Notes: generated by a model from the sequence alone, not told the origin. A stretch of DNA of 64,000 nt from an uncultured Pseudomonadales bacterium (GCA_964439805.1 CAYTOI010000001.1:67573-131572); one strand, 5' to 3'; positions 3,567 to 55,117 are shown, numbered from the stretch's first letter. Numbers and translations: made by a program.

Positions 3567-3717
3567 TCCACAATTCTACATTACAAACAAAATAAAAAAA
3601 TTATTAGCGGAGAGAGTGTCCTTTGTGGCGATATTTTGCAAGGTGCGCGTAGAGCATGATCTCCTGTACTCAGTACACATAAACACAACATCTTGAGTTC
3701 TTGATTCCTTGAGTTCT

Positions 3718-4821
3718 TCACTCAAGATAATCTTGCAACTTTCTTCTTCTAGAAGGATGTCTCAATTTACGTAGAGCCTTACTCTCTATCTGTCTTATAC
3801 GCTCTCTGGTGACACCAAATACTCTTCCAACCTCTTCCAAGGTCAAAGGTTTACTTCCGTCCAAACCAAATCTCATTCTAAGAACTTTACTCTCTCTTTC
3901 AGTAAGAGAAGTAAGCGCATCTTCCAAATTCTCATGCATTAATTGACGAGATGTTGACTCGTAAGGAGTAGCTTGTCTTTCGTCAGGAATAAAGTCTCCA
4001 AGCATAGAATCTTCATCATCTCCAATTGGGGTTTCAAGAGATGTAGTTTTCTGGGCAATTTTGAGAATTTCTCTGACTTTCTCTGGAGTGGTTTCCAACT
4101 CTGCTGCCACTTCGTCATCTGTCGGTTCTCTACCAAGGTCCTGCATCAACTTTCGCTGAGTTCTAATAAGTTTGTTTATTGTCTCCACCATGTGAACCGG
4201 AATACGAATAGTTCTGGCTTGATCAGCAATTGCACGAGTTATAGCTTGGCGAATCCACCATGTAGCATAAGTAGAAAATTTAAATCCTTTAGTCCAATCA
4301 TATTTCTCAACCGCACGAATCAAACCCTTGTTACCTTCTTGAATCAAGTCCAAAAAGCTCATTCCTCTGCCCATGTATTTCTTTGCAATCGAAACCACCA
4401 AACGAAGGTTCGACTTGGTAAGCATGTCTTTGGCGTGAACATTTCCTCTTTCTACCTTCTGAGCCAAAGCAATCTCTTCATCTCGTTTAAGAAGTGGAAT
4501 GCGTCCAATTTCCTTAAGATACATTCTCACTGGGTCGTTTACCTCAGTGTCCTCCATCTTGGAAAGAGACTCTAGTTCTTTTTCTAGCTCACTTGTAGCT
4601 TCCAATATTTCGGCGTCCTGACCTGCCAAAACACTCTCAAAAACGTCAACGTCTGACTTAAAAAGCACTTCATAAAGAAAATCCAAATCATTTATTTCTT
4701 TCTCTGGATTGGGAAATTGCTCCAAAATATCATCCTGGGTCACAAAACCCTGCTCCTTACCCTGTTCTAGGATTAGATTAATTTTCTGTTGGTTGGAAAG
4801 ATTCGCTTTTTTATCAGCCAT
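3718..4821 (-). CDS. rpoD: RNA polymerase sigma-70 factor RpoD
   Basis: Region 2 ([30 protein letters not shown]), region 3 and region 4 (LTEREARVLRLRFGL-like: [15 protein letters not shown]) are present. Sits directly downstream of dnaG. Confidence 0.95.
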
Positions 4822-4848
4822 AAATAGATTCCCTAGCTTACCACATTT

Positions 4849-6615
4849 TTAAGCGAAATCAAGGGAAAAAAGCTTGTTTTCCCTGGTATCCAAATCCCTT
4901 AGCTTCAACAAAATCTCCTTTTCCTTCTCTTCTTCTCCGTTTTTCTCCGCCAGCTCCCTATCTTTGGCCAAATCTGTCCTTCTCTCTCTAATCATTTCTC
5001 TAGCAATCTTTACGGTAAGATCCAAGACGTTAGACTCGTTAGTTTCTGCCTCTTCTGAGCTCATGTAGATGTCTTTGCAGACCTCTTGCATCTCTGTGGG
5101 CATAGTTAAGAGAAAATCTTTAATTTCCACCCCAGACTCAAGATTATCAAAAACAAAAACCAATAACTTCCACAATCCTCCCGACCCTTCAATGTCTCTT
5201 AGAACTTTTTTTGTCTTTCTTATTAAATCTTGGTTAGCCAGCAAACTTCCAATTAAATTTTTCAAAAGCTTATCAATTCGTGATTCACTTACCGTCTTTT
5301 CCTCTTTCTTAGCAATCACTCCGACCGATCTCCCTGACCGACTTTTGTCAATTTCTGCCAAAACACTATTAAGACTTACCCCAATTTTCTCCGCGAGTCT
5401 TTTGGACCAAACCTCTCGAATGACAACATTTTCAATTTTTGAAAGAAAAGGAATAACTTCCACCAAAACCTTACTTATTCCTTCTGGAGTTCCATCATTG
5501 TTTTTCTTTATCGCTTTTTCCATCACAAACTCATAAACATCAACTGCAGACTCTACCATTTTCTTCCAAAGACCCGCCGAGTTTCGGGCAATTTCATCCG
5601 GATCTTTGCCTCCATCTATCTGTACAACTTTAATATTCAAACCTCTTTTTTCTGCAAGCTCCACCGATCTTTTTATCGCCGCATAACCCGCGTCATCTGC
5701 ATCAAGTGAAACATATATTTTGTTTGCAAGCCGAGCCATCAACTCCATCTGGTCTTCTGTAATCCCTGTTCCTCCAACGGCTACTGTTTCTGTAATGCCA
5801 CTAGCAAAAGAACTGATCTGATCCATCTGACCTTCTACCAAAACCACTCTTTTATTTTCTCTTATTGCTTTTTTTGCTTGGTAAAATCCATAGAGCATTT
5901 TTCCTTTATGATAAATTTCTGTTTCTGGAGAATTTAGATATTTCGGTTCTCCTTCTTTGGCAAGTTCTGGCAACACTCTCCCAGTAAAACCCACCACTCT
6001 ACCTGCCGAATCCTGCAAAGGAAACATCAGCCTTCCTCTAAATTTGTCATAGTACCCTCCTCCAGCTTTCTTAACCACAAGCCCTACTTTCTCCAATAGT
6101 TCCAAGGAATAGTTTTTCTTCTTAGTAAGGTAATTTATCAACGAATCCCAACTACTTAAAGAAAAACCCAAATTATATGTCTCAATTATTTTGCTCGATA
6201 TTTTTCTTCCCTCCAAGTATTTTCTAGCTACTTCCCCTGATTTTCCTGACACCAAAATCCAGTTGTAATATCTAGATGTAAGTTCCATAACTTCCAACAT
6301 CTCATTTTTTATCTCACTATTATTCCCGGATCTTTTCTCTAGCTTTATCCCCACTCTATCTGCCAGTCTCTCCAAAGCATCCAAAAAACTAATTCCTTCA
6401 ACCTCCATTAAAAATTTAATTGAGTCACCTCCTGCACCACATCCAAAACACTTATAAAGATTTAACTCTTCGTTAACCAGAAAACTTGGAGTTTTTTCGG
6501 AGTGAAACGGACACAGCCCCTTCTGATGTCTTCCCATTTTCTTTAAAGCCACATATTGACCTACTACATCCGCAATATTATTTTTGCTCTTTATTTCCTC
6601 AACTTGATCATTCAT
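4849..6615 (-). CDS. dnaG: DNA primase DnaG
   Basis: CHC2 zinc finger (CPFHSEKTPSF...CFGCGAGG) and Toprim region (VVLVEGQMD...DAD). Classic dnaG-rpoD operon order. Confidence 0.95.
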   Translation of the reverse strand: MNDQVEEIKSKNNIADVVGQYVALKKMGRHQKGLCPFHSEKTPSFLVNEELNLYKCFGCGAGGDSIKFLMEVEGISFLDALERLADRVGIKLEKRSGNNSEIKNEMLEVMELTSRYYNWILVSGKSGEVARKYLEGRKISSKIIETYNLGFSLSSWDSLINYLTKKKNYSLELLEKVGLVVKKAGGGYYDKFRGRLMFPLQDSAGRVVGFTGRVLPELAKEGEPKYLNSPETEIYHKGKMLYGFYQAKKAIRENKRVVLVEGQMDQISSFASGITETVAVGGTGITEDQMELMARLANKIYVSLDADDAGYAAIKRSVELAEKRGLNIKVVQIDGGKDPDEIARNSAGLWKKMVESAVDVYEFVMEKAIKKNNDGTPEGISKVLVEVIPFLSKIENVVIREVWSKRLAEKIGVSLNSVLAEIDKSRSGRSVGVIAKKEEKTVSESRIDKLLKNLIGSLLANQDLIRKTKKVLRDIEGSGGLWKLLVFVFDNLESGVEIKDFLLTMPTEMQEVCKDIYMSSEEAETNESNVLDLTVKIAREMIRERRTDLAKDRELAEKNGEEEKEKEILLKLRDLDTRENKLFSLDFA

Positions 6616-6633
6616 CTACCTGATTATAACAAG

Positions 6634-6736
6634 CTCATAATGACTTCAGTGATTATGAGCGCAGTTATAAGAGGAAGCGCAGGATGATAGTTCAATAATT
6701 ATTTATTATTGAACAGAAGACGAGCAAGCTCTTATA
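6634..6736. repeat. ~100-nt structured dispersed repeat, copy 1 (second copy at 12045-12146)
   Basis: About 92% identical to 12045-12146. Contains two perfect hairpins (gctcataat..attatgagc, and gttcaataat-tattt-attattgaac) nested in an outer stem ataagag/ctcttat. Confidence 0.7.
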
Positions 6737-6746
6737 TAAACAGTCG

Positions 6747-7571
6747 GTGAATTCGACTTCAGTGATTTATATTCTTCCCCATTTGAAATATACTCAAACC
6801 ATGCAAATTTCAGAAAAAAGTATCGGTTTGGTTTTGGGTGGTGGCGGAGCTAGAGGCTTTTTCCATATCGGTGTCCTCAAAGCCATTCAAGAACTCAACA
6901 TAAAGATAGACAAGATCTCGGGTACATCCGTAGGTGCTGTTGTTGGTGCCATATACGCCGCCAACCCTCAAACGGATTTTGACAAACTAACTTCAGAAAT
7001 TGATTTTTTAAAAATAACCAAAGCAATGGCTCTCGGCAGAAAATCCGGCACCACTTCTGGTATTGAAACATTTATTAAAAACCACTTATCAGCCAACGAC
7101 TTCTCAGATCTAAAAATTCCCCTTTCTTTTAATGCCACAGACATCAACAACAAAGAAGAGGTGGTTTTTGACAAAGGACCCCTTTTCCCGGCCCTAATTT
7201 CTTCCATCTCTATTCCAGGGGTATTTCCACCAATAAAGATTGGGGGTCGTTTTCTAGTTGACGGAGGTGTAGCCAACAATGTTCCAGCTTCACTGATTAC
7301 CGACACTACCAACCTCATAATCTCCGACATTACCGGACCTGTGAGAAAAATTGAAAGTGACACTTCCCCCCTTAAGGTTCTCTATAGCTCCATAACTTTT
7401 ATGCAGTACCGAATCAAACAGGAAGAGCTAAACAAAATTAAAAATCAAAAAGTTACTCACCTAAAACTTTTAGAAAACAACATTTTCCTCTTGGACTTCC
7501 GAAAGAAAAATTTCAAAAAACTCATTAACCTCGGCTACAAAGCCATGATGGATAGTGACTTTGCAAAATAA
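6747..7571 (+). CDS. Patatin-like phospholipase
   Basis: GGGxRG oxyanion motif (GGGARGFFHIGV), GxSxG nucleophile (GTSVGA) and DGG catalytic Asp motif (DGGVANNVP). Confidence 0.85.
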   Translation: MNSTSVIYILPHLKYTQTMQISEKSIGLVLGGGGARGFFHIGVLKAIQELNIKIDKISGTSVGAVVGAIYAANPQTDFDKLTSEIDFLKITKAMALGRKSGTTSGIETFIKNHLSANDFSDLKIPLSFNATDINNKEEVVFDKGPLFPALISSISIPGVFPPIKIGGRFLVDGGVANNVPASLITDTTNLIISDITGPVRKIESDTSPLKVLYSSITFMQYRIKQEELNKIKNQKVTHLKLLENNIFLLDFRKKNFKKLINLGYKAMMDSDFAK

Positions 7572-7573
7572 CT

Positions 7574-7715
7574 GGCGGAGGAGGTGGGATTCGCCTTCGG
7601 TCACTTTCAGTGCCTCAGGACCTGTCTCAGCAGGTTTGTTACAAAACTGCTTCCGACTGTCCGAATTCCATATAGCAATAAAAAAATTCTCACATAAAGC
7701 GAGAATTTTTAATTG
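7574..7715 (-). mobile_element. tRNA-Ser(GGA)-associated ~120-nt element ending in a 19-nt copy of the tRNA 3' end
   Basis: gcggaggaggtgggattcg at 7575-7593 repeats the tRNA 3' end at 7716-7734. The intervening sequence contains a terminator hairpin (attctc..gagaat plus T-run) and a ~80-nt segment homologous to 9893-9962 and 11886-11968. Confidence 0.5.
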
Positions 7716-7800
7716 CGGAGGAGGTGGGATTCGGACCCACGAGTGCCGGAGCACACTCGCTTTCCAAGCGAGCGGAATAGACCACTATCCGACTCCTCCG
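7716..7800 (-). tRNA. tRNA-Ser (anticodon GGA)
   Basis: Class II tRNA: acceptor GGAGGAG/CUCCUCC, anticodon stem CUCGC/GCGAG with loop UUGGAAA, long variable arm GUGCUCCGGCAC, T arm GUGGG-UCCGAAU-CCCAC, discriminator G. Confidence 0.85.
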
Positions 7801-7929
7801 AGTGAGCAAGTTTGTAAATTTACTAATTTACAAGTTTGTGAAGCGAGGAGGAGAGGATATCGTAGATATCCGTACTCCTACACAATTCTCTACTCGATTC
7901 TCAAGTTTTAAAACTCAAGCTTCTATATT

Positions 7930-8757: not shown

Positions 8758-8780
8758 GTCTCGCGGGAGAACCTGTATCC

Positions 8781-8866
8781 TGGCGGTGGGGACAGGACTC
8801 GAACCTGCATGCCCTTGCGAGCGCCAATTTTCGAAATTGGTTCCTTACCATTCGGAGCACCCCACC
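8781..8866 (-). tRNA. tRNA-Ser (anticodon CGA)
   Basis: Class II tRNA with encoded CCA: acceptor GGUGGGG/CCCCACC, anticodon stem CCAAU/AUUGG with loop UUCGAAA, long variable arm, T arm GCAGG-UUCGAGU-CCUGU, discriminator G. Confidence 0.8.
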
Positions 8867-8875
8867 AAATATATG

Positions 8876-8950
8876 TGAGACCGGTGCGATTCGAACGCAC
8901 GACCTCCTCCTTCGCAGGGAGGCGCTCTAATCCAACTGAGCTACGGCCTC
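8876..8950 (-). tRNA. tRNA-Arg (anticodon GCG)
   Basis: Acceptor GAGGCCG/CGGUCUC, D arm GCUC..GAGC, anticodon stem CCUCC/GGAGG with loop CUGCGAA, T arm GUGCG-UUCGAAU-CGCAC, discriminator A. Confidence 0.8.
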
Positions 8951-8996
8951 ATATTAAAACTAAAAGTCTCAACAGCTATATTTTACCTTAACAGCG

Positions 8997-9506: not shown

Positions 9507-9523
9507 ATCAACCTCAAAAACCT

Positions 9524-9613
9524 TGGCGGAGGGGCAGGGATTCGAACCCTGGGTGAGTATTACCTCACGGAGGTTTAGTAAACCTCTGCACTAGACCACT
9601 ATGCGACCCCTCC
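9524..9613 (-). tRNA. Class II (Ser-type, G73) tRNA with atypical anticodon loop UUACUAA (apparent anticodon ACU)
   Basis: Encoded CCA; acceptor GGAGGGG/CCCCUCC; D stem GCA/UGC; anticodon stem GAGGU/ACCUC; long variable arm GUGAG-GUAAUA-CUCAC; T arm CAGGG-UUCGAAU-CCCUG. A34 is unusual. Confidence 0.6.
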
Positions 9614-9614
9614 T

Positions 9615-10645: not shown

Positions 10646-10671
10646 AGACCTGAGCAATCAGGTCTTTTTTT
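10646..10671 (+). terminator. Rho-independent terminator after the HIT gene
   Basis: agacctga-gcaa-tcaggtct hairpin followed by TTTTTTT. Confidence 0.6.
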
Positions 10672-11368
10672 AATGCCCCAAGGCAAAACCCCAAACCACT
10701 GCCACTCCAGCTTGTTTTAAAACCTTACAGCACTCTTTCATGTTCGACCCAGTTGTAAAAACATCATCTACAAGCAACACCTTCTTTCCACTCAAACTTT
10801 TATTTTCTCTATCTTGAGTTCTTGATTCCTTGGGTTCTTGAGTTCTAATTGAAAAAGCATCCCTAATATTTTCAACTCTTTCCTCCCTGCTCTTCATCAA
10901 AGCTTGCTGCTTGGTATTTTTGATCCTTTTTAAAACATTTACACAAGGTACCCCAACCTTCTCACCCAGCACTCTCCCAATTTCCTCAGCCTGATTAAAA
11001 CCTCTCCAATTTTGACGATAAAAATGCAAAGGAACAGGGACTAAACAATCAAAATTAACACCGGTCTCAATGCTCATATTCTCAAAAAGCCTAGCCACTA
11101 AATCCTTATTAAAATCATATTTGATTGTATCTACAACCGACCTCACACTAGGATCTCCATACTCAAAAAGCACTATCAACCCGTCCATACCTAAGTCCCT
11201 CTTGCACTTCTCATGAGTCCAGCCCATTATTGATTCCTGCTCACACATGGGGCATATCTGGGCTGATATACCCAACTCTTTCTCACAACCCACACACAAG
11301 TCTTCTTCCAGCTTGCCACAAACAGCACATGTCTTGGGGAAGAAAAAGTCCTTCAAAACACTCAACAT
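10670..11368 (-). CDS. ComF-family phosphoribosyltransferase-domain protein
   Basis: N-terminal double Cys-x2-Cys zinc finger (CAVCGK..CVGCEK..CPMCEQ) and C-terminal PRTase motif VLLVDDVFTTGSN. Carries an in-frame octamer-repeat insertion at 10812-10846 (RTQEPKESRTQDRENKS). Confidence 0.8.
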   Translation of the reverse strand: MLSVLKDFFFPKTCAVCGKLEEDLCVGCEKELGISAQICPMCEQESIMGWTHEKCKRDLGMDGLIVLFEYGDPSVRSVVDTIKYDFNKDLVARLFENMSIETGVNFDCLVPVPLHFYRQNWRGFNQAEEIGRVLGEKVGVPCVNVLKRIKNTKQQALMKSREERVENIRDAFSIRTQEPKESRTQDRENKSLSGKKVLLVDDVFTTGSNMKECCKVLKQAGVAVVWGFALGH

Positions 11369-12843: not shown

Positions 12844-14760
12844 CTAGTTTAACACCCCGACAGCACCTGGAAACAATACTATTAGCCTATTTTCCCCATC
12901 AAATTCTATGTCTTTTGCCTCTTTAAGCTTGTCCGACTTGATCTGTTGACTACAAACACCATCTTTTTTGCTACAAAACACTACCGAGCCTGATTTTGAA
13001 GACAACAAGGCAATTCTGTCCCCCTCTTTCTCAACTGACATTTTTTCAAACTCCATCTCAGGAGACAGCCCGCTCACGCTAAACACCTCTTTTGAGCCTC
13101 TTCTGAACCTCTCAATCTGCCCCTTTTCCTCTAACACCCATATATCTACATCAATATCCAAATCTATCGGAGAAGAAGCAATTACTTGACCCTCCTTCAG
13201 CCATCTGGCTCTTTCTCCAAATCCAGAATCAGTTAATGGGTATTTAAATATTTCCTTGTTATTTTTCTCCAAAACATAAAGGTTTGCCCCAAACTTAGCA
13301 AATGACAATGGAGATGTTACTGCCGTGTCAAACGTCATAGAACTAGACTCTTCGCCTACAGGAAACATTCCACTCTTGCTCATTACATAATATTTGGTTC
13401 CATCCGAAACCGCATCCATCCACCCCAAGCCAGCGCCTTTACCAGCCACCACTTTTACTTCTTTTGTTTTTGTATCTACCGACATTACAATTCCCAAACC
13501 AGAACTAGTAACCACAAACTTCCCATCAATCACAAAACTCATTTTGTTGGCGTTCACCCCAGCTCTTATTAACTCTAGGTTTACTAGTTCAGTAATATTA
13601 CCTCCCTTTTCCCCCGAAACACTTACCCAAGCATCTGCGATTTTTTTGTCCAATTCTTCTGCTTTTGATTTAAATTCACCACTAGAAAACTCCAGCTTTC
13701 TCAGATCAAAAGCAAGCCTCGCGTCTTCTACTAATTTCTTTGACCCAGCAGGGTTTAGTTTGGTAAGACCTATTGCTTCGTTTACGTTTTTTTCTATTGG
13801 TTGAGAAAACGAGATCCATTTGTTACTATTTTCCTGATTTTTCTTACGAACACTCCCCAGCATTAAACTGACAACAAGCAATCCAAGGAACAAAACTCCT
13901 AGAAATAATGACAATCTCTTCTGTTTTATGGTTTTCTGATCAGTAGAGATATTTACAGTTTTTCTCTCTCCGAAGCGATTTTTTATTTTTTGCCAAATAC
14001 CAATTTTTCCAACATACTTATCACTCGCCAGAATCTCCCTCTCAAAAACTTCCACTCCACTCTTGACTCCTTCTTCTACCTTTGCAGGTTCAATTTCCTC
14101 AGTCTTATTCTCCACAACTTCTTCCAAAACAACTGTCGGATTCTCCTCTTCAACCGCCAAACCCTCTGCAACCATTTTAAAACCAGCATAGCTTCCCAAG
14201 CTTAAGTCTTCTTTTGCACTTTCCCACGTCTCAAAATCTTCGCTTAAGTTCCCCACCCAAAATCTTACAACATCCTTGTCTTTCAGTTCTCCAGTAATAA
14301 CTTTCCCATTTTCTAAATTTTTCCCTATATCTATCTGTGTTCCTTCTCTTTCAATTATCAGTTTCCCTTTCGTGTTTCCCACCATTTTTATTTTTCTTAC
14401 TCCAGACACCATCACCACCCAAACCCAAAGACAATCAAATTCAGGGTATTTCTCCAAAAAACCAGCAAACAAGCCGGTCAAATTCCCTCCAGTTTCATCA
14501 GCATTAAAAAATTCCTCTACCCAATTTGTCATCTCTACTTCAACGTCTGCCCATCCTTCTTTTTTCTCCGACTTTACCACTCCAAACAACGCCCCTTTTT
14601 GTTTTAGCTCCACCTCATCAAAAGGCAATCTAGCAAAAACCTGAGACCACGAAGAAGTGTCTTCTTCACACACAAATCTAAGAAAGTTTAATCCAAAACC
14701 ATTATTCACACTAATATAACTATAACAGTTATAGCGATACAAAGGAAACAAAATCCCCAA
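12844..14760 (-). CDS. Hypothetical membrane-anchored protein
   Basis: 638 aa: soluble N-terminal ~260 aa, one TM (LSLFLGVLFLGLLVVSLMLG), then a ~350-aa beta-rich probable extracellular domain. The start codon is uncertain. Confidence 0.5.
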   Translation of the reverse strand: MGILFPLYRYNCYSYISVNNGFGLNFLRFVCEEDTSSWSQVFARLPFDEVELKQKGALFGVVKSEKKEGWADVEVEMTNWVEEFFNADETGGNLTGLFAGFLEKYPEFDCLWVWVVMVSGVRKIKMVGNTKGKLIIEREGTQIDIGKNLENGKVITGELKDKDVVRFWVGNLSEDFETWESAKEDLSLGSYAGFKMVAEGLAVEEENPTVVLEEVVENKTEEIEPAKVEEGVKSGVEVFEREILASDKYVGKIGIWQKIKNRFGERKTVNISTDQKTIKQKRLSLFLGVLFLGLLVVSLMLGSVRKKNQENSNKWISFSQPIEKNVNEAIGLTKLNPAGSKKLVEDARLAFDLRKLEFSSGEFKSKAEELDKKIADAWVSVSGEKGGNITELVNLELIRAGVNANKMSFVIDGKFVVTSSGLGIVMSVDTKTKEVKVVAGKGAGLGWMDAVSDGTKYYVMSKSGMFPVGEESSSMTFDTAVTSPLSFAKFGANLYVLEKNNKEIFKYPLTDSGFGERARWLKEGQVIASSPIDLDIDVDIWVLEEKGQIERFRRGSKEVFSVSGLSPEMEFEKMSVEKEGDRIALLSSKSGSVVFCSKKDGVCSQQIKSDKLKEAKDIEFDGENRLIVLFPGAVGVLN

Positions 14761-14921
14761 ACCAAAACCCTCAAACTTCCCCCAATTGGATAGTTCACCA
14801 CCTTATTCATAAGACCAGATTGCCTCACCATAATAAGAGACAGAATAGAAAGAAGTATGAACCCCACATTCACCATCACATTAACTATCAGGTTAACGAT
14901 GTTATTTATAGACAGTTCCAT
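14706..14921 (-). CDS. Small membrane protein, hypothetical
   Basis: 71 aa with two hydrophobic segments. Overlaps the end of the neighbouring gene, so support is weak. Confidence 0.3.
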   Translation of the reverse strand: MELSINNIVNLIVNVMVNVGFILLSILSLIMVRQSGLMNKVVNYPIGGSLRVLVWGFCFLCIAITVIVILV

Positions 14922-17353: not shown

Positions 17354-17426
17354 CTAGTTTATATTATTTCTGATATCTGACATCTGAGATCTGACATCTA
17401 TATATCAATCCCATGCTAAAATTACA

Positions 17427-19167: not shown

Positions 19168-19218
19168 TCCAGAAGATATTCAACATCTTGAGATCTTGAG
19201 TTCTTGATTTCTTGAGTT

Positions 19219-20328
19219 TTACATCTCCCTCTCAACCATGTATCTCGCTATCCCCTCCAAGTAATCTATCGCCTCACTATTCAATTTTAACTTTCTGAGT
19301 TTCTGGATTGTTTCTATAGATTTTTCATTTAAATCTCTTGCCACTTTTACAGAATAATCATACGAACCACTTTCCTTAATTGCTTTCTTTGCCAAATCAA
19401 CATCTTTTTCATTAGCTGCTTTTTTACCCCAAACTTTCATAACAGATTCCTTCTGCTCTTCCGTCCCCAATTCCAACACTTTTACAATCAGCAGTGTCAC
19501 TTTGCCTTGCAACAAATCCGAATTTGCTGATTTTCCTGTTTTTTCTTCATCACCAAACAATCCCAAGATGTCATCTTGGAGTTGAAAAGCTACTCCACCA
19601 AACTCAGAATATTCTCTCAAAACATCTTTTACCTCTTCCGACAAGTCGGCAAGTATTGCTCCAATAATTAGAGGGTTTTCGTAAGTATAAATTCCCGTTT
19701 TTGCTCTATGCAAACTCATTACTTTTTCTTCTGTCATTTCTCCTAAGTTTGGCAAACTCACATCATAAGCCTGGCCAAAAGCAGTGTTCGCTATTCCTCG
19801 GAGCATCTGTTTCATGGCTGCTATTAAGTTCTTTTCCTCAAATCCAGAGTCCAAAATTCTCTCGTATCCCAAACACAAAACCGAGTCTCCAATATTTACC
19901 GCCATCGACTCCCCAAAGTGTTTATCTTCTTTTCCAAAAAATACTTGTGTTGTCGGCTCTCCTCTTCTGACAAGATCTTCGTCCATAAAATCATCATGCA
20001 TAAGCAAAGCCGTATGAACCAATTCAACTCCTTCCGCCACCTTCCATATATCCCCACCTTTTGTCTTAAGTTCTTGATTCCTTGAGTTTTCGAGTTCTTG
20101 TAGTTTGTATCCCCAAACCACAAACCCTGCTCTCGCCCTCTTTGCCGATCTCAAATTGTGCTCCTTGGCGTGCAAAAGCATCTCTCTAACCATTTTTTTC
20201 TGAGTCTCGTTGTAACCAAAATTTTTACCCAACTCAATATCCCAATACTTTTCCAGCCTCAAATCCATATCCTTAGCCAAAGCAACTAATTTTGTTTTGG
20301 CAGATAATCCTAGTTCATTTTTTACCAT
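19219..20328 (-). CDS. Polyprenyl diphosphate synthase (IspA/IspB family)
   Basis: First Asp-rich motif LLMHDDFMDED and second motif FQLQDDILG. Carries an in-frame octamer-repeat insertion at 20066-20102 (ELENSRNQELKTK). Confidence 0.85.
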   Translation of the reverse strand: MVKNELGLSAKTKLVALAKDMDLRLEKYWDIELGKNFGYNETQKKMVREMLLHAKEHNLRSAKRARAGFVVWGYKLQELENSRNQELKTKGGDIWKVAEGVELVHTALLMHDDFMDEDLVRRGEPTTQVFFGKEDKHFGESMAVNIGDSVLCLGYERILDSGFEEKNLIAAMKQMLRGIANTAFGQAYDVSLPNLGEMTEEKVMSLHRAKTGIYTYENPLIIGAILADLSEEVKDVLREYSEFGGVAFQLQDDILGLFGDEEKTGKSANSDLLQGKVTLLIVKVLELGTEEQKESVMKVWGKKAANEKDVDLAKKAIKESGSYDYSVKVARDLNEKSIETIQKLRKLKLNSEAIDYLEGIARYMVEREM

Positions 20329-22557: not shown

Positions 22558-22629
22558 ACAAACAAACTCACCATCTTGAGTTTTTGAGTTCTTGAGTTTT
22601 TGAGTTCTATATTATTGTAAAATAAAACC

Positions 22630-41292: not shown

Positions 41293-42411
41293 TTAACTCT
41301 GAACCCGAATAGGCATAATCACCTGCAACCAGCTCATATTTTTATTATCCTTCAGTACACTGGGCTTAAGCTCTCCTTCCGTCTCCCATTCCACAAAGTC
41401 ACCCTCCACTACTGACAAGTAATCAATTAAATACTTAGCGTTAAACGCCATTAGAATTTTCTCTCCTTCCACTTCACTCTCAACTTTTGTCACATTACTC
41501 CCAATCTGACTATTCTCTGCTGAGACAGACACTGTTCCTTCTTCAATTTGAATTTTTATGACATTCGCGTTATCCCTAGCAAAAAGACTAGCTCTTTTAA
41601 CCGCCGATAACAATTCATCTTTGGGCACATTTACTTTTGTATTGTAGGTGTTCGGAATAATTTGCTGATAAGGAGGAAACTCACCTTCAAGCAATCGACT
41701 ACTAATCTCCAAACTTCCCAAAGAAAAAATAACTTGTCTTCCTTTGTCATCAAATTCAATACCAAAATCTATTGCTCCAAAATCCGAAACTGCCTTAGAA
41801 ACTTCTAACAAAGCCTTTGAAGGAATAATGTATTTTTTGTTCAACAAATTCTCCGAATTCTTCGTCTCTGGTACAACTCTCTCCATACTCAAGCGGAAGC
41901 CATCAGTGGCCACTAAGAGAGTCTCAGTCTCTTTGAATTCCCACAAAACCCCAGTAAGAATTGGTCTGGTATCTTCCTTCGCTGTCGAGACATTTACCTT
42001 TTCCATTTTCTTCTTAAAGTCAGAAGACTCAATTCTGATTACCGCCGCCTTCAATCTGGGAATTACTGGAAAGTCCTCCACACTCTGACAAACAAGTTCC
42101 GAGGTTACCCCTTTGGTCTTTACCACTAGTTTATTATCAATTGACTCCAGCTCAACCTTCTCTCCCACAAAACTTCCTACCAAATCCACAAAAAGTTTAG
42201 CTGGTACAACCAAGCTACCTTCACTCTCTACACTAGCTGGAATACTTACCCAAAAACTCATCTCCAGATCTGTCGACTCCACACTCACTTGAGAGTCTTT
42301 TACTCGAAGCAAAATTCCAGACAAAATAGGTAAGTGAGGTTTACTACTTATTCCTCTAAAAACTAAATTTAAACTACGCTTAAGATCGACCGACAACACA
42401 CTTATTTTCAT
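41293..42411 (-). CDS. dnaN: DNA polymerase III beta subunit (sliding clamp)
   Basis: 372 aa. Opening MKISVLSVDLKRSLNLVFRGISSKPHLPILSGILL matches the three-domain clamp layout. Adjacent to dnaA. Confidence 0.9.
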   Translation of the reverse strand: MKISVLSVDLKRSLNLVFRGISSKPHLPILSGILLRVKDSQVSVESTDLEMSFWVSIPASVESEGSLVVPAKLFVDLVGSFVGEKVELESIDNKLVVKTKGVTSELVCQSVEDFPVIPRLKAAVIRIESSDFKKKMEKVNVSTAKEDTRPILTGVLWEFKETETLLVATDGFRLSMERVVPETKNSENLLNKKYIIPSKALLEVSKAVSDFGAIDFGIEFDDKGRQVIFSLGSLEISSRLLEGEFPPYQQIIPNTYNTKVNVPKDELLSAVKRASLFARDNANVIKIQIEEGTVSVSAENSQIGSNVTKVESEVEGEKILMAFNAKYLIDYLSVVEGDFVEWETEGELKPSVLKDNKNMSWLQVIMPIRVQS

Positions 42412-42737
42412 TTCTCAATTCTAGCATTCTCTCTGGCTAATATATTAATAATTTATTTAAAAAAATAGTATTAGTCATTAGTAAGCGGTGTGGATATGTT
42501 AATAGCTATGCTCAGCGTGTGCCCAAAAACGTTATGGATAACTTACTTTTTAGCCGCAGATCAATACTTTTAAGTATTTTGTCTAAAAACTACGCACAAA
42601 AAGTTGTTGAAAACCTAAACAAAAAGTGACTGCTAGTGTGAAGAACTTTGTGTACTTATCAACCGAGATAATTAAAATGCGAATACTTCTCCCCCGACTC
42701 ACAAGTTATCCACCTACGGTGAACAACTTTCTGATAA
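42412..42737. promoter_or_regulatory. Candidate oriC (dnaA-dnaN intergenic region with DnaA-box-like 9-mers)
   Basis: AT-rich 326-nt intergenic region with tgtggatat (42489-42497), ttatggataa (42532-42541) and ttatccacc (42706-42714), all 8/9 matches to TTATCCACA. A perfect TTATCCACA at 44140-44148 lies upstream of dnaA. Confidence 0.45.
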
Positions 42738-44123
42738 CTATGTTAATAACGCTTGTTTTATTGCCATTACTTTGCGCCTTAGATCAACATTATTCTCATT
42801 TAATTCCATCTCAATTTTTTCCACTGCATGGATAACAGTTGTATGGTCTCTGCCTCCCATTATCTCCCCAATCTTTGCTTGTTGAAGTCCTAGTGTGTCT
42901 CTAAGAATGTACATGGCAATATGTCTTGCTGCTACTAGGTCAGCTTTTCTACTAGACCCAAGCAACTCCTTATTTTTAAAGTCAAAGTATTTTGCTACAG
43001 TAGAAATTACTTTTATTGGTCTTACTTTAATGGACTTAATAAGTTCGGCCGGTAATCCCATCTCTCTCTGAACAATTTCTTTGGACAGAGGCTTGTGGTC
43101 AGCTCCAGCCGCATTCATTAGTCGCATAAAGGTTCCCTCTAGTTCTCTTCCATTTGTTTCAAAACTATTTGCCATTAATTCAAAAGCAGTGTCTTCTACA
43201 GCCGCCCCCGTCTCCATCGCTTTTTGTTTTAAAATCGCCATTCTCATTTCGTAGTCAGGCAAACCAACGTCCACCATCATTCCTCCAAGAAATCTACTTC
43301 GAAGTCTATCCTCTAGCCCCACAATATCTTGAGGTTTTCTATCACTAGTCATCACTATCTGCGCTGACTTCCCTACTAGCTCATTAAAGGTGTGGAAAAA
43401 TTCTTCTTGAGTCGAATCTTTTCCTCCAAAGAACTGCACATCGTCAATAAGTAGTGCTCCCACGTGTCGATACTTCTTTTTGAAAGCTTCCGTCATCTTA
43501 GATCTAAAAGACGAGACCAAGTCGTTTGTGAACTGTTCACTGGTTATAAAAATTACCTTACCAACACCTTTCTTTACCAGTTCATGTCCCACACCATGCA
43601 TTAAGTGAGTTTTTCCAACCCCTACTCCCCCATATATAAATAGTGGGTTGTGTCTACTCCCAGGGAAATCTACTACTGACTTTGCGGCCGCAAAAGCCAG
43701 TCTGTTTGAACTTCCCACCATGTAAGAATCAAAGGTGTACTTGGGGTTTAAATTTGTCCCAAAGTCTCTCTCGGGGTTTGGGGTTCCAAAAAGTTCTAGT
43801 TTTGGCTCACTACTCTCATCTGTAAATTTGGGTTTTTTGTTCTCTACCACTGGAGCTTTATCGCTAACCACGAAAGCAATATCACACTTCTTGTGAGTAA
43901 TCTTCTCCGAAGCCTCTTTTATATTTAGGTAAAACCTCTCCTCTATTGTCCTCACATGATAAGCGGATGGGGTCGAAACCTCTATAAGTATTCGAGAATC
44001 ATCAATTAGGTTTACAGATTTAATGGAACAAGGTCGGATCCACGCGCTAAAATTAGGCCCATTCAGGGTCACTCCTAACTCGCCACAGATAGATTGCCAA
44101 AGTGATTCGCTGTCCATAATCAA
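42738..44123 (-). CDS. dnaA: Chromosomal replication initiator DnaA
   Basis: AAA+ Walker A GGVGVGKTHLMH, Walker B LLIDDVQF, sensor motifs and a C-terminal DNA-binding domain (HTTVIHA..). Confidence 0.95.
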   Translation of the reverse strand: MIMDSESLWQSICGELGVTLNGPNFSAWIRPCSIKSVNLIDDSRILIEVSTPSAYHVRTIEERFYLNIKEASEKITHKKCDIAFVVSDKAPVVENKKPKFTDESSEPKLELFGTPNPERDFGTNLNPKYTFDSYMVGSSNRLAFAAAKSVVDFPGSRHNPLFIYGGVGVGKTHLMHGVGHELVKKGVGKVIFITSEQFTNDLVSSFRSKMTEAFKKKYRHVGALLIDDVQFFGGKDSTQEEFFHTFNELVGKSAQIVMTSDRKPQDIVGLEDRLRSRFLGGMMVDVGLPDYEMRMAILKQKAMETGAAVEDTAFELMANSFETNGRELEGTFMRLMNAAGADHKPLSKEIVQREMGLPAELIKSIKVRPIKVISTVAKYFDFKNKELLGSSRKADLVAARHIAMYILRDTLGLQQAKIGEIMGGRDHTTVIHAVEKIEMELNENNVDLRRKVMAIKQALLT

Positions 44124-44229
44124 GTTCCATTCTCAATACTTATCCACATTATTACAACCCCCAAAATACCCAAAACCCCCATTTCTGAGATCTGATATCT
44201 GAGATCTGGGATCTAATGTATAATTACGC

Positions 44230-44371
44230 CATGCCAAAACGCGTATACCAACCAAAGAAAGTCAAAAGAATCAGAAAACATGGATTCCGTGCCAAAATGG
44301 CAACACATGCTGGTCAAAACGTTATCAAACGTCGCAGAGCCAAAGGTAGATCCAAATTAGCGGTTCAATAA
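44230..44371 (+). CDS. rpmH: Ribosomal protein L34
   Basis: 46-aa [46 protein letters not shown]. Absent from the ORF track because it is shorter than 60 aa. Canonical position upstream of rnpA. Confidence 0.85.
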
Positions 44372-47280: not shown

Positions 47281-47359
47281 TTGCAAATATACAAAAGAAT
47301 CATTATCTTGAGTTCTTGAGTTTTTGAGTTCTTGAGTTTTTATAATGTAAAATACTCTC

Positions 47360-47800: not shown

Positions 47801-48095
47801 ATTTTGTCATGCCGGACTAGATCCGACATCCAGTTCCTCAAACAAGACTGTATTGTTGCATCAACGGTAGAAGATATAAAAAGAAACTCAATATCTTGAG
47901 TTCTAGAGTTCTTGATTCCTTGATTCCTAAAACAGAAAAAACAATTGTGGATATCATATATCGAGGCCATGCCTGAATTTTCATGTGTAGAAGGTTATAA
48001 CGAAAATAAAAAATATTAAGCGTGAAATAAAAAATAAATTATGGCTAAATTGTAAAAAAGAAATTGTAATAACAAAAATAAAGAAAATAAAATTA

Positions 48096-50828: not shown

Positions 50829-50860
50829 AATTTTGAGCTCTTTTAGGCTACAATACCACC

Positions 50861-51520
50861 ATGAATAAATACGTTTTAAAGGCTGAAAAAAGAGAAATTA
50901 TAGGTAGTAAGGTGCGTAAAATGCGCAAGGTTGGCTTAATTCCAGCCACGGTCTTTGGAAAAACTGTAGATAGTGCTTCAATCCAAATCTCTAGCGTTGA
51001 GTTCAATAGAGTTTACAAGCAAGCCGGAGAAACCAGTCTTATTTGGATCTCCGTTGATGGTGAGGCAAAAGAAAGACCAACCTTGGTAAAAGACCTCTCT
51101 AATAACCCCATGACCGGTAAAATTGTCCATATTGATTTTCATCAAGTTAACCTCAAGGAAAAAGTTACTGCAAACGTTCCAGTAGAAATTATTGGTGAAT
51201 CTGATCTAATTAAATCTGGGGCTGCCGTACTTGATATTCACATGGACGAGGTAGAAGTAGAAGCTTTGCCAACCGATATCCCAGAAAAACTGGTTTTTGA
51301 TATTTCTTCACTAAAAGAAGTCGGTGAACACTTGTTACTTTCTTCCGCAGTTCTACCTTCTGGAGTCACCTTAATAACTGACTCTGAAAGTATTGTAGTG
51401 GCTCTAGGCGAGCCTCAAAAGGAAGAAGAGCCTCTGGATACAGCAGTTGCTGAAACAGAAGTCGTAGGCGAAGCTGACAAAGACAAAAAAGAAGAGTCTG
51501 CATCCGAAACAAAAGAATAA
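50861..51520 (+). CDS. rplY: Ribosomal protein bL25 (general stress protein Ctc form)
   Basis: REIIGSKVRKMRKVGLIPATVFGK N-terminus plus an acidic C-terminal extension. Confidence 0.8.
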   Translation: MNKYVLKAEKREIIGSKVRKMRKVGLIPATVFGKTVDSASIQISSVEFNRVYKQAGETSLIWISVDGEAKERPTLVKDLSNNPMTGKIVHIDFHQVNLKEKVTANVPVEIIGESDLIKSGAAVLDIHMDEVEVEALPTDIPEKLVFDISSLKEVGEHLLLSSAVLPSGVTLITDSESIVVALGEPQKEEEPLDTAVAETEVVGEADKDKKEESASETKE

Positions 51521-51535
51521 TTATTGTTCAATAAC

Positions 51536-51563
51536 AAAAACTCCCCATCGGGGGAGTTTTTTT
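51536..51563. terminator. Bidirectional rho-independent terminator between convergent rplY and valS
   Basis: aaaaactcccc-atcg-ggggagttttttt: perfect 7-bp GC-rich stem flanked by A-run and T-run. Confidence 0.75.
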
Positions 51564-51625
51564 GCATCTTGTCATTCCGGACTAGCTTGTCCCGATTGTT
51601 CAGTCGGGGATCCGGAATCCAGGAC

Positions 51626-53728
51626 TCACCATCTCTCATTGATCAGCAAACCTTCCTCAGGATAAATCTCTTTCCAAACAGCTTCTGTTACAAACGGCAC
51701 GAATGGGTGTAAGAGTTTAATAAAAGTCTTATATCCGTTATTCAAAACTTCAGCTGATATCTCACCTTTTTTACAAGCTTCAATTTGTTCATCACAAAAC
51801 CAGTGCCAGAACTCGTTATAAACAGTCTCCGAAGCCAGACCAACTCTGTTCTCATTCAACAATCTCGTCATTTCAGCCACAACTTCATTTAACTTCTTCT
51901 CAAACTCCCCGTCTTTTACTTTGGTTGTCTCGAGTTCTTGATTCTTCGAGTTCTTGAGTTCTTGAGTAAATCTCCCTGCATTCCAAATCTTATTTGCAAA
52001 ATTTCTCATGCCTCTCACTTTATTCTCACCTGTATTAGAATCTATTCCTGGAGCCGTACTCATAACTAGAGCCATTCTGAGAGCATCAGTTCCATACTTT
52101 TCTGAAAGCTCCAGTGGGTTAATTACATTCCCTTTACTCTTACTCATTTTTTGACCTTTTTCGTCTCGAACTAATCCATGAAGATATACAGTTTTAAAGG
52201 GGACTTTTCCTGTCATCTCAATTCCTAGCATCAACATTCTCATTACCCAAAAAGGCAAAATATCATAAGCGGTCTCCATTACTTGGGTGGGGTAGTACTT
52301 CTCAAAATCCATCTCTTTATTAGTTTTTAGGGTTGCAAAAGGCCACTGACCGGAGCTAAACCACGTGTCAAAAGTATCCGTCTCCTGTATCCATCCCTCG
52401 CCTGGATTCTCTTTTTGTACCAAATACTCCTCATTTTCTAGAGTTCTTGATTCCTTGAGTTCTTGAATTCTTTCTCTATACCACACCGGCATCCTAATAC
52501 CCCAAACAATCTGCCTACTTACATTCCAGTCTCTAAGATTCTCAAGCCAGTGTCTCAAAATTTTATCGTGACCAGATCCCATTACTTCAAATTCATTGTT
52601 GTCCAAAGCTGATAAAACCTTTTGGGCCATAGATTTTACAGATATAAAGAACTGAGACCTTGGTAAGGGCTCTATGGTTCTTCCACACCTGTAACACACA
52701 CCCACATTGTGACCGTAGTCTTTTGTTTCAATTAGTTTTTCACCCAAATCAATAACTATTTTTTCTCTAGCTGCAGATACACTCAAACCCGCATACTCAC
52801 CTGCATTCTCGGTCATTTTGCCGTTTTCTCCTACAACTTTAAATTCTTTACAGATTTCCTGAAGATTCATTTTTGCTCTCTCAGCCATGGCCCAGTCATT
52901 TGGGTCATGCGCAGGAGTAACTTTTACAGCTCCAGTTCCAAAACTAATATCAACTAGCTCGTCAGCAATAACAGGAATTTTTCTGTTTACTAGGGGAATA
53001 GTTACCATCTTTCCAATAATTCCTTTGTATCTCTCGTCGTTTGGATTTACGGCTACAGCAACGTCGCCCAAAAGGGTTTCTGGTCTAGTAGTGGCGACTA
53101 CAACACCTTCACCATAGTCTATTGTATAAAGTTTGTCATTCTTTTCTTCGTGATTTACTTCCAGCTCAGAGTAAGCAGTGCCACACTTTGTACAAAAATT
53201 AACTAGTTTCTCAGCTTTGTAAACCAGTCCACGTTTGTTTAGTTCTACAAAAGTCTCCTGAACCAAAGAAACAATTTCTGGGTTGAGTGTAAATTTGTAT
53301 CTACTCCAGTCAGCACTAGCTCCCAACTTTTTCATTTGGTCTATTGCTACATCTGAGTTCTCTGAGACATAATCCCAAATCATCTTAAAAAGAGTCTCTC
53401 TGTCGTAGTCGAATCTGCTCTTGTCTACTTTGGCAAGTTTCTTTTCGAAAACAAACTGTGTTTCAATCCCCGCGTGATCAGTACCGGGTAGCCACAAGGT
53501 AGCGTCTCCAAGCATTCTGTGAAAGCGAACCAGAATATCTTCTACTGTTACAAACATTGCGTGCCCCACGTGCAAAGGATCGTTTGCGTTGGGTGGCGGC
53601 ATAATCACGGTAAATGTTTTCTGTTCTCCTGTCAGATCCTTGCCTGCCGGGGGAGTAAAAGCACCAGAATCCTCCCACAATTTATAAAGTGAGTCTTCGT
53701 ATTTTTTGTGATCGTAATTTTTGTCCAT
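51626..53728 (-). CDS. valS: Valyl-tRNA synthetase (compact form)
   Basis: Class I HIGH region PPPNANDPLHVGHA and KMSKS (KMSKSKGNVI). Two in-frame octamer-repeat insertions at 51931-51967 (QELKNSKNQELETTK) and 52438-52468 (ESRTLENEE). Confidence 0.8.
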   Translation of the reverse strand: MDKNYDHKKYEDSLYKLWEDSGAFTPPAGKDLTGEQKTFTVIMPPPNANDPLHVGHAMFVTVEDILVRFHRMLGDATLWLPGTDHAGIETQFVFEKKLAKVDKSRFDYDRETLFKMIWDYVSENSDVAIDQMKKLGASADWSRYKFTLNPEIVSLVQETFVELNKRGLVYKAEKLVNFCTKCGTAYSELEVNHEEKNDKLYTIDYGEGVVVATTRPETLLGDVAVAVNPNDERYKGIIGKMVTIPLVNRKIPVIADELVDISFGTGAVKVTPAHDPNDWAMAERAKMNLQEICKEFKVVGENGKMTENAGEYAGLSVSAAREKIVIDLGEKLIETKDYGHNVGVCYRCGRTIEPLPRSQFFISVKSMAQKVLSALDNNEFEVMGSGHDKILRHWLENLRDWNVSRQIVWGIRMPVWYRERIQELKESRTLENEEYLVQKENPGEGWIQETDTFDTWFSSGQWPFATLKTNKEMDFEKYYPTQVMETAYDILPFWVMRMLMLGIEMTGKVPFKTVYLHGLVRDEKGQKMSKSKGNVINPLELSEKYGTDALRMALVMSTAPGIDSNTGENKVRGMRNFANKIWNAGRFTQELKNSKNQELETTKVKDGEFEKKLNEVVAEMTRLLNENRVGLASETVYNEFWHWFCDEQIEACKKGEISAEVLNNGYKTFIKLLHPFVPFVTEAVWKEIYPEEGLLINERW

Positions 53729-54055
53729 CCACCCAATTTTACCCCAAACTTGACTCTTGTGGCTACAAAACCTATAATCCCGTCAACTGGAGGATCCGTG
53801 AACATTCAAAATCCTGAAGCGTTGACCAATTTGGCTTTTATCTTCTACCTAATAGCCTGTTTTATCTCGCTGTTTTTTAAAAAATTTAACATCAACAGCA
53901 TCATTTTGATTATTTTCTTGGATGTAATTTCAGGTTTATGTTTAGTTTTTGCAAATTCAGATTATGCCTTTTTACCCTTGCTCACAGCTGCACTGCACTC
54001 AATAATGCTAATTAGCCTAAAGAAAAACAAATTAGACCCGTCCTAGCGACGGGTT

Positions 54056-55117
54056 TTATATTATCCCCATCCCTGGGTCGGGAGATATTTCGGTACTTGC
54101 TGTGATAGGTTTGAGTAAGGCACAGGCTCCAATCATGGCTGCATTGTCCCCACAATACTTTAATTCTGGAACAAAGAACTTTAAACCTCTACTTTCGACA
54201 GTCTTTCTCATCTCTTCTCTAATTTTGGAATTTGCCGCCACTCCGCCGGCGAGAAGAACACTCTTCACAGAATACTTATCCATTGCCAAATTTAATTTCT
54301 TTATCAGAATCTCGGTCACCGCCTCAGAAAAATCCCTAACATACAAATCTCTCTCTTTCTGAGATCTGATATCTGAGAACTGAGAACTAACCCTAGTCAC
54401 CGCAGCCTTTAAACCTGAAAAACTCATCTCTAAGCTATCATCATTAATTAGTGGTCTAGGAAGTTTATCTTTCTTATTTAGTTTCGAATACTCTTCATTT
54501 GTAACACTCTTGGTTCTTTTATCGATTTCTGGCCCACCAGGATAGGGAAGTCCAAAAGCTCTTGCTGCCTTGTCAAAGGCTTCTCCTACAGCGTCATCTC
54601 TGGTGCCACCAATCCACTCCCAATCGTCTACAGACTTCATATAGACAAAATCAGTGTGACCTCCACTAGCAATCAATCCAATTGCCGGCATCTCCGGCAC
54701 CTCATCATCTTGAGTTCTTGATTCCTTGATTCCTTGATTTCTTGGATTTATTATCCAATTTCCCATCAAATGTGCGCCCACGTGATTTACCGAAAGAAGC
54801 GGCTTGTTAAAAACCCAAGCGAGAGTTTTGGCCGTTTCCACACCTATCAGTAAACTTCCCATTAATCCTGGCCCAAAACTCGCTGCAATAGCATCAATTT
54901 CCTCCATTTTAATTTCACCCAAAGCTTCTTTAATTACAGGAATAATGCTTTTTACTTGCTCACGTGCAGCCAGCTCGGGGATTATTCCTCCGTATTTCTC
55001 TTGAATCGCAATTGAACTTGCCACAACAGAGATTAATACTCTCACGCCCAAACCAATATTCTCCACTACCGCAGCCGCAGTCTCATCACACGTACTCTCA
55101 ATTGCCAATATCTTCAT
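54056..55117 (-). CDS. tsaD: tRNA N6-adenosine threonylcarbamoyltransferase TsaD (Kae1/YgjD family)
   Basis: MKILAIESTCDETAAAV N-terminus, HxxxH metal site region (NHVGAHLM) and C-terminal GGVAANSKIRE. Carries in-frame repeat insertions at 54356-54390 and 54708-54747. Confidence 0.9.
   Translation of the reverse strand: MKILAIESTCDETAAAVVENIGLGVRVLISVVASSIAIQEKYGGIIPELAAREQVKSIIPVIKEALGEIKMEEIDAIAASFGPGLMGSLLIGVETAKTLAWVFNKPLLSVNHVGAHLMGNWIINPRNQGIKESRTQDDEVPEMPAIGLIASGGHTDFVYMKSVDDWEWIGGTRDDAVGEAFDKAARAFGLPYPGGPEIDKRTKSVTNEEYSKLNKKDKLPRPLINDDSLEMSFSGLKAAVTRVSSQFSDIRSQKERDLYVRDFSEAVTEILIKKLNLAMDKYSVKSVLLAGGVAANSKIREEMRKTVESRGLKFFVPELKYCGDNAAMIGACALLKPITASTEISPDPGMGII

Follow-up and report, generated by a model that had tools for sequence, protein, structure and literature searches.

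What kind of sequence is an octamer repeat that recurs in short blocks at ten sites of one stretch of bacterial DNA, between genes as well as inside intact ones, and always on the same strand? The question is raised by a stretch of 64,000 nucleotides (nt) from a genome labelled as an uncultured Pseudomonadales bacterium (GCA_964439805.1, CAYTOI010000001.1:67573-131572; the whole stretch is called here the window). Each of these blocks is a copy of a non-coding DNA repeat that is spread across the Candidatus Collierbacteria lineage and takes the form of a short tandem array with defined ends. As for their origin, it is proposed, with a probability of roughly 0.55, that arrays are made or refreshed from ones already present, through a step at the replication fork that distinguishes the two strands, and that they are neutral or selfish passengers. 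The blocks had been noticed in an initial annotation of the window; the analysis adds to it the placement on a single strand, a second family built of heptamers, the defined ends, the modal size of 36 nt within genes and the conservation at the level of DNA.

Regarding their presence, the ten arrays are far above chance. A probe made of two TCTTGAKT units, with up to two mismatches allowed, matched the window 28 times against 0.60 expected from dinucleotide-preserving shuffles of the window, and no shuffle reached 28. All but one of these matches (27 of 28) fall inside the ten blocks, every one on the + strand; the last (6885-6900, minus strand, two units with two mismatches) is within chance. 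Tandem Repeats Finder recovered the ten blocks independently, with a period of 8 and 3.5-5.1 copies, so that the positions listed in the initial annotation were borne out; the most over-represented 10-mers of the window also come from this family. Half of the copies are intergenic and half lie inside genes, antisense to them, and a stretch of 25 kb, between 22.6 and 47.3 kb, is free of octamer arrays.

As for the anatomy of the array, its unit across genomes is YYTTGAKT, usually repeated three to five times. Variation is restricted to position 1 (T or C), position 2 (C or T) and position 7 (G or T), the TTGA core and the final T being nearly invariant; a higher-order unit of 24 nt, TCTTGAGT-TCTTGATT-CCTTGAGT, is found verbatim at different sites and in many independent Collierbacteria-type assemblies. 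On the C-rich strand the element reads (YYTTGAKT)n followed by TCTT, and on the G-rich strand AAGA(AMTCAARR)n. Both ends were defined on 66 non-redundant copies: on the left, a G-poor TCAYTA precedes the array with no partial unit; on the right, the partial unit TCTT is kept in 46-65 of the 66 copies, according to the position. Neither inverted termini nor target-site duplications appeared in the flank profile of these copies or in pairs of filled and empty loci.

The two strands differ in their coding capacity. The TCTTGAGT strand contains TGA in every one of the three frames within three units, so that an array can persist inside a gene only if ACTCAAGA is on the sense strand; this latter strand is open in all frames and, read directly off the sequence, gives the cyclic peptide TQELKNSR. 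The element is 8n+4 nt long and its first in-frame size above 12 nt is reached at n = 4; thus, the genic size distribution is the one predicted by a frame filter. Indeed, counting as genic the arrays within a stop-free frame of 150 codons or more, four full units are present in 34 out of 41; the sizes that prevail either equal a multiple of three or lie next to one, and a total of 36 nt (12 codons) is the most frequent. Of the intergenic arrays, 9 have three units and 12 have four. The array is one repeat under two constraints that act jointly, strand asymmetry and reading frame.

Strand polarity and spread of the family

In 425 kb of Collierbacteria-type loci, the C-rich strand carries 104 of the 107 arrays, 49 of them on the + strand at loci of negative GC skew and 55 on the - strand at loci of positive skew. 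Array orientation agrees with the sign of the local skew at loci of both signs, apart from the three remaining arrays, two of which are marginal matches; with a stricter definition of the array, the polarity holds for 67 of 67 octamer arrays and for 5 of 5 heptamer arrays. In the window, the skew is negative in 16 out of 16 segments of 4 kb, and the genes are evenly split over the two strands. Intergenic copies are as polar as genic ones, therefore coding constraints alone cannot yield the polarity. Lone units outside arrays occur at chance frequency and are unskewed (about 10 on + vs 13 on -).

The window includes dnaA (42738-44123) and dnaN (41293-42411), which adjoin a divergent rpmH-rnpA-yidC-jag cluster; three near-consensus DnaA boxes are located in the dnaA-dnaN spacer, and a perfect one is found at 44140, upstream of dnaA. 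Neither a switch of the skew nor a flip of array orientation occurs at dnaA-dnaN (42412-44231). Either the origin lies elsewhere, or the asymmetry of the window is not the usual signal of bidirectional replication.

As for the host, TsaD and ValS homology identifies the window as Candidatus Collierbacteria-like, within the Microgenomates of the candidate phyla radiation (CPR), with the nearest relatives 82% (TsaD) and 81% (ValS) identical. A scan for the three-unit pattern, restricted to one genome per species, returned at least 105 loci. About half of the matches listed come from Collierbacteria-type assemblies, namely LCKO01, PFUC01, DQFC01, MFAQ01, MFAS01, LCIE01 and probably mislabelled metagenome-assembled genomes (MAGs); the latter are named Woesebacteria (JAGVOE01) or Pseudomonadales (CAZPFY01, CAYHNG01, CAZUFH01, CAYSAM01). 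The MAG loci (L013, L021, L027, L047, L055, L059, L063, L081, L106 and JAGVOE01) are orthologous or syntenic to those of Collierbacteria, and the window shares synteny with one of them; judged on these flanks, the public labels "uncultured Pseudomonadales" and "Woesebacteria" of the MAGs that carry arrays are likely wrong. Arrays occur in this lineage about once per 4-6 kb. They can be used as lineage markers, which is how these Collierbacteria-like MAGs were exposed, and they also break assemblies.

The other half of the matches listed belongs to many unrelated phyla. In a viral collection used as a control, composition-matched shuffled octamer triplets gave 10, 1 and 2 matches, compared to 2 for the real unit; since shuffled octamers are about as frequent as the real one, the sporadic matches in foreign phyla are treated as background microsatellites. 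A pan-bacterial (TCTTGAGT)n element was considered and rejected on the same counts. Rfam reported only tRNA and tmRNA in the window and in 15 array-bearing loci of other phyla, and no paper mentioning the repeat emerged from a full-text literature search made with a 16-mer on either strand and with Collierbacteria combined with tandem repeats.

A composite element occurs in multiple copies in soil bacteria of two phyla, Chthoniobacterales (L011, L038, L085, L095, L049, L012) and Acidobacteriota (L066). It consists of inverted arrays, (ACTCAAGA)n ... (TCTTGAGT)n, on either side of a conserved core, gcgatgcggacctcggcgcgagact, about 35 nt long, and it is often located just upstream of a start codon; it had no match in Rfam and it was kept separate from the Collierbacteria family.

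Copies inside genes and their turnover

Five arrays of the window are inside genes, and all of them are on the + strand of genes encoded on the minus strand. The first (10812-10846) is in a comF-like gene (10670-11368), where it encodes the peptide RTQEPKESRTQD at residues 175-186; the second (20064-20102) is in the polyprenyl synthase gene (19219-20328), with the peptide LQELENSRNQELKT at residues 76-89. The valS gene (51626-53728) has two, site A (52436-52472; ERIQELKESRTLE, residues 419-431) and site B (51928-51967; TQELKNSKNQELET, residues 588-601), and tsaD (54056-55117) has one at 54708-54749 (INPRNQGIKESRTQD, residues 123-137). The host open reading frames (ORFs) are intact and the ComF, polyprenyl synthase, ValS and TsaD models match on both sides of the arrays; disrupted pseudogenes would have spoken against the initial annotation. 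Its statement that each copy is a multiple of three and preserves the frame is correct for the net ORF, which stays in frame, but not for the blocks as such, whose stated lengths of 28-42 nt are not multiples of three.

The initial annotation also described each peptide as an addition to an enzyme otherwise aligned end to end. This description suits TsaD and ValS site A, which gain residues, whereas the copies in comF and at ValS site B, two of the five, are replacements. In TsaD, the insert amounts to about 14 residues that are missing from the Thermotoga protein, and an array-free relative, compared at the DNA level, reads WIVENNEQEVP at the same site, with the insert absent. The AlphaFold2 model of TsaD (mean pLDDT, the predicted local distance difference test, of 84.7) shows residues 123-144 as a coil, with pLDDT below 50 at residues 126-135 and confident values for the rest; the surface loop expected by the initial annotation is thus matched, for this protein, by a low-confidence coil, and the insert is predicted to be a disordered loop. 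ValS site A is 10-13 residues longer than in array-free relatives, while the array at site B has the same length as the linker of the Thermus valyl-tRNA synthetase (ValRS). The comF array aligns without gaps to the corresponding stretch in a phosphoribosyltransferase of solved structure, with no net insertion, and that of the polyprenyl synthase is N-terminal of the region alignable to solved homologues.

ValS has only 700 residues and covers the 860-residue models up to about position 695, indicating that the C-terminal coiled-coil domain is missing; the same applies to all the listed Collierbacteria homologues (680-750 aa).

The arrays lengthen protein alignments and confuse them. Their lineage is a streamlined one (CPR, with tiny genomes), yet it accepts such blocks even in the genes of an aminoacyl-tRNA synthetase and of a tRNA-modification enzyme.

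Regarding their persistence, a syntenic relative with about 73-76% protein identity (L106) has arrays at the orthologous tsaD site, at both valS sites and at one intergenic site, its units being mostly TTTTGAGT; in a more distant genome of 1.08 Mb, the tsaD loop retains ACTCAAAA units. Peptides of the octamer type are also found at matching loop positions in relatives with 60-82% identity in TsaD and 65-81% in ValS. Hence, the peptides are not confined to this genome, and the lineage-specificity that the initial annotation set against an ancestral loop stands only in part; nevertheless, an ancestral protein loop is not the explanation, because spacers and unrelated genes contain the same DNA unit too, and in other relatives the loops hold different repeats or none.

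The distribution of these peptides is patchy, both on the ValS tree and on the ValS and TsaD alignments. Some close relatives have no peptide at these positions; in others the loop is occupied by a heptamer-type peptide (DLRSQISD), by one of SSIVD type, or by peptides of palindromic-element type (LPRHSAPRNDG, GMT, LAMT). One large clade is insert-free, and its syntenic region is devoid of arrays despite an equally strong skew. DNA comparison between loci provided clean pairs of filled and empty sites, of 35 nt and about 48 nt, as well as the exchange of arrays for palindromic elements at the same site. Moreover, a perfect palindrome of 21 nt (7 codons), CCTGCCTGCCGGCAGGCAGGG, lies inside or beside octamer arrays in three loci (L062, L097, L052) and is absent at the orthologous sites (L025/L037, L039 and L075); it was not found in the window. 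Since heptamers and small palindromic elements are accommodated in the same loops as the octamers, the loops behave as turnover hot spots.

Conservation was measured on 26 ungapped pairs of orthologous arrays, with 74% identity in the flanks. Identity reaches 91-99% at unit positions 3, 4, 5, 6 and 8 and only 64-79% at positions 1, 2 and 7, so that the core is maintained in a non-neutral way; 64 genic arrays share their profile with 41 intergenic ones. Because successive units are read in different frames and spacers give an equal profile, this pattern indicates a constraint at the DNA level or a continual renewal, and not selection on the peptide.

The second family of the window is made of heptamers (variants TCTGAGA, TCTGATA and TCTGACA), in three + strand copies, every one with four units; Tandem Repeats Finder detected all three. 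One of them, TCTGAGA x4, is in frame in tsaD (54358-54385), where it encodes SQFSDIRSQK at residues 245-254; at the orthologous site, L106 has a drifted heptamer, ACAGATG x4.9. The others are between dnaA and rpmH (44184-44214), directly upstream of a TATAAT box, and in a divergent intergenic spacer (17369-17399). C-rich short repeats of AACCCCCAA type are also present, at 14749-14776 and 44156-44181, both on the + strand, and the second adjoins the heptamer array upstream of rpmH.

Explanations for the arrays

Copying from existing arrays, the explanation preferred here, would involve a step able to tell the two strands apart, from which the near-absolute polarity relative to the strand asymmetry of the chromosome would follow; the likely routes are gene conversion from one array to another or template switching at the fork. 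Selection would then filter the surviving sites for orientation, for a length multiple of three and for a tolerant surface loop, linker or terminus, and an array surviving in a gene would be translated into a hydrophilic, disordered peptide composed of K, E, N, S, R, T and Q. In such a scheme, the asymmetry would probably derive from the direction of replication, and the arrays would be neutral or selfish rather than useful. Two observations lean slightly in its favor. Folding with RNA parameters gives a weak full hairpin for four units of the U-rich strand, formed through G-U pairs (-7 kcal/mol), and a wholly unstructured sense strand, a difference that could produce an orientation-dependent stability; in addition, Pfam detected no mobility gene (transposase, integrase or reverse transcriptase) in the window.

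Several points weigh against copying by passengers of this kind. With DNA parameters, either strand of the array folds at 0 kcal/mol and forms no hairpin, therefore orientation-dependent deletion would depend on G-T wobble pairing as treated by RNA parameters. The dnaA-dnaN region, with its DnaA boxes, shows no flip of skew or of arrays, and the asymmetry may not mark the direction of replication. The TTGA core is kept in old orthologous copies, as it would be in a functional motif, and a purely selfish element should decay at its resident sites unless gene conversion is frequent, a process for which arrays of 24-36 nt are short. Lastly, copying itself was not observed, and there is no filled and empty pair so nearly identical as to be recent. 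Orientation-dependent deletion on its own was also considered and rejected, the fold of the U-rich strand being too weak to carry it.

The polarity and the conservation of the core are the ground on which the strongest alternative stands. Here, the arrays are a strand-polar signal of the Collierbacteria chromosome that is useful to the host, such as an analogue of Chi or of the FtsK-orienting polar sequences (KOPS), or a site for reloading the helicase or the primosome; the tandem YYTTGAKT would be read by a sequence-specific protein of the fork or of the nucleoid, and it would be kept even in essential genes. This explanation is possible, with odds clearly below those of copying. It accounts for the near-absolute polarity, for the density in the lineage, for a TTGA..T core that is conserved above the flanking coding DNA at orthologous sites and equally in genes and spacers, and for a variability restricted to three positions whose alternatives are shared by all genomes. 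It is opposed by the single units, which outside arrays are neither more frequent than chance nor skewed, by the very uneven spacing, with the 25-kb gap, by the related clade that matches in gene order and in strength of skew but has no arrays, and by the replacement of arrays with unrelated repeats at the same sites. Further, the known polar motifs are G-rich, whereas the octamer is A/T-rich. If the arrays were such a signal, selection would be maintaining them despite the cost of 12 extra disordered residues in the essential ValRS and TsaD.

A non-autonomous mobile element, served by an enzyme encoded elsewhere, is a more doubtful candidate. The enzyme could be an HUH/Y1 transposase, like those of IS200/IS605 and of the REPINs discussed below, or the element could move by an RNA route, as proposed for the small dispersed repeats (SDRs) of cyanobacteria. 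The defined ends and discrete size, the clean filled and empty sites and the nesting with other mini-elements would all suit an element of this type, and single-strand transposition coupled to replication shows a comparable strand polarity. However, the arrays lack terminal hairpins, inverted repeats and target duplications, the 64 kb of the window contain no transposase-like gene, and the core of old copies has not decayed.

Ordinary microsatellites, born by independent local slippage at each site, are strongly disfavored. The similar rate of shuffled triplets in the viral collection and the sporadic (TCTTGAGT)n arrays of many unrelated phyla would be expected of them, but not the use of one unit with three variable positions and of one 24-nt higher-order unit at over 100 sites of many genomes, nor a phase fixed at both ends of the array, a polarity of 104 in 107, and a modal copy number that is stable instead of variable.

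A regulatory role is comparably improbable. It would regard the TCTTGAGT strand as a set of boxes resembling -35 elements (cf. the extended -35 consensus TCTTGACA), and the other sense as unstructured intercistronic spacers or terminator arms. The five intergenic arrays of the window are all on the + strand. Two of them precede promoter-like boxes: the array at 22574-22607, between two + strand genes of the type IV secretion system (T4SS)-pilin-like type, immediately precedes TATATT and is separated by 22 nt from a downstream ATG, and that at 47306-47340, between a 376-aa gene and an rnhA-like gene, is directly upstream of TATAAT, at the intergenic site that is kept in L106. TATAAT-like boxes likewise adjoin the heptamer array at 44184 and arrays in three other loci (L004, L086, L092). 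The array at 3691-3718 (TCTTGAGT TCTTGATT CCTTGAGT TCTT) starts at the first base after the rpoD stop codon, that at 19186-19218 has its last base directly before the stop codon of the polyprenyl synthase, and that at 47894-47928, between an RNase H-like gene and a DUF4012 gene, overlaps a 107-aa ORF with no family match. At rpoD, the stop codon TGA is within one inverted octamer unit (3720-3727), paired with the first unit of the downstream array, and the resulting hairpin (3707-3727) has 8 bp, an RNA folding energy of -16 kcal/mol and a z of -2.6. Against a general regulatory function, promoter-like matches are not clearly above shuffles (2 vs 3.3 expected and 2 vs 0.5 expected), about 60% of the arrays sampled in related loci are antisense inside genes, and array orientation tracks the chromosome strand and not the neighboring gene. 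The arrays that adjoin TATAAT boxes and the hairpin at the rpoD stop look like occasional co-option.

Least probable of all are protein-level features, that is, ancestral or adaptive hydrophilic loops to which the DNA repeat is incidental: related peptides do occupy the same loop positions in relatives 60-82% identical, but half of the copies are intergenic, conservation follows the unit position and not the codon position and is identical in spacers, other relatives have unrelated repeat-derived peptides or none there, and the TsaD loop is predicted by AlphaFold2 to be disordered.

Other features of the window are a type IV secretion-like cluster (17827-41292), which includes seven small genes of the T4SS-pilin family, a PrgI-like protein, a VirB4/TraG-type ATPase, an 868-aa protein with an M23 peptidase, and several large proteins with no family match. 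Between 7715 and 9847, five tRNA-Ser genes and one tRNA-Arg gene are packed in 2.2 kb; for one of them ARAGORN gives the anticodon ACT, unusual for bacteria.

Comparison with known repeat systems

The initial annotation had compared the arrays to the Rickettsia palindromic elements. The comparison is apt for their insertion in frame into conserved protein genes, where both are tolerated as an extra surface segment; it fails for the structure, because the arrays are direct tandem repeats of octamers, 24-40 nt in total, that are not palindromic and form no DNA hairpin, whereas the Rickettsia elements are palindromic and about 100-150 bp long. The two are presumably unrelated in sequence as well, and the host here is a Collierbacteria-like CPR bacterium and not a Rickettsia.

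The closest systems are instead the short tandemly repeated repetitive (STRR) elements and the SDRs of cyanobacteria. STRRs are dispersed short tandem arrays, found in spacers and inside a functional gene, whose function is unknown (PMC2670836). The arrays of the window share with them the organization in dispersed arrays with few copies of a 7-8-nt unit, and the window also has a heptamer family. Differences concern the host, which is Collierbacteria-like and not a heterocystous cyanobacterium, the main unit, which has 8 nt and not 7, the translation in frame in essential protein genes, the near-absolute polarity and the genic mode of 36 nt. The unit sequences of the window also differ from the published STRR units and, to our knowledge, neither in-frame translation in essential genes nor strand polarity nor a 36-nt mode has been described for STRRs. 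As for the SDRs of Nostoc, they were reportedly described by Elhai et al. in 2008 as elements of 21-27 nt, often embedded in tandem heptamers and nested in one another; the 21-nt palindrome CCTGCCTGCCGGCAGGCAGGG, nested in the octamer arrays of relatives, recalls this arrangement. SDRs are, however, single hairpin-like units and not tandem arrays, and we know of no report of polarity or in-frame behavior for them.

Other families of small repeats are further away. The repetitive extragenic palindromic (REP) sequences and their doublets (REPINs), associated with RAYT transposases, are short, abundant, lineage-specific non-coding repeats that spread within a genome (PMC3116915). REPINs are extragenic palindromic doublets tied to a RAYT gene, whereas the octamer arrays enter genes; no palindrome was found in the arrays, and no RAYT/Y1 transposase gene was detected by Pfam in the window. 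Miniature inverted-repeat transposable elements (MITEs) differ as well, since the arrays have neither terminal inverted repeats nor target-site duplication.

With KOPS, the SpoIIIE recognition sequences (SRS) and Chi, the arrays share the 8-nt unit and an orientation tied to the strand asymmetry of the chromosome. KOPS and Chi, in contrast, act as single, skewed, G-rich octamers, which are recognized by FtsK or RecBCD/AddAB and switch orientation at the origin and terminus, while here only the arrays are polar and single units are neither enriched nor skewed; the octamer motif works, if at all, only as arrays. Contingency (phase-variable) repeats also have short tandem units in coding regions, with a unit length that is not a multiple of three; they differ in that the units described here are imperfect, the copy number is stable at orthologous sites, where arrays are mostly ungapped, and the hosts are housekeeping genes (valS, tsaD) and not surface or restriction genes.

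In conclusion, the arrays differ from STRRs, SDRs and Rickettsia palindromic elements in the phylum of the host, the octamer unit, the routine translation in housekeeping enzymes, the 36-nt mode, the polarity and the core conserved at old sites. Two of these traits, the near-absolute polarity and the conservation of the core at old sites, are not accounted for by any described family of small repeats, and they could point to an undescribed mechanism of strand-specific copying or to a polar chromosome signal of a new type.

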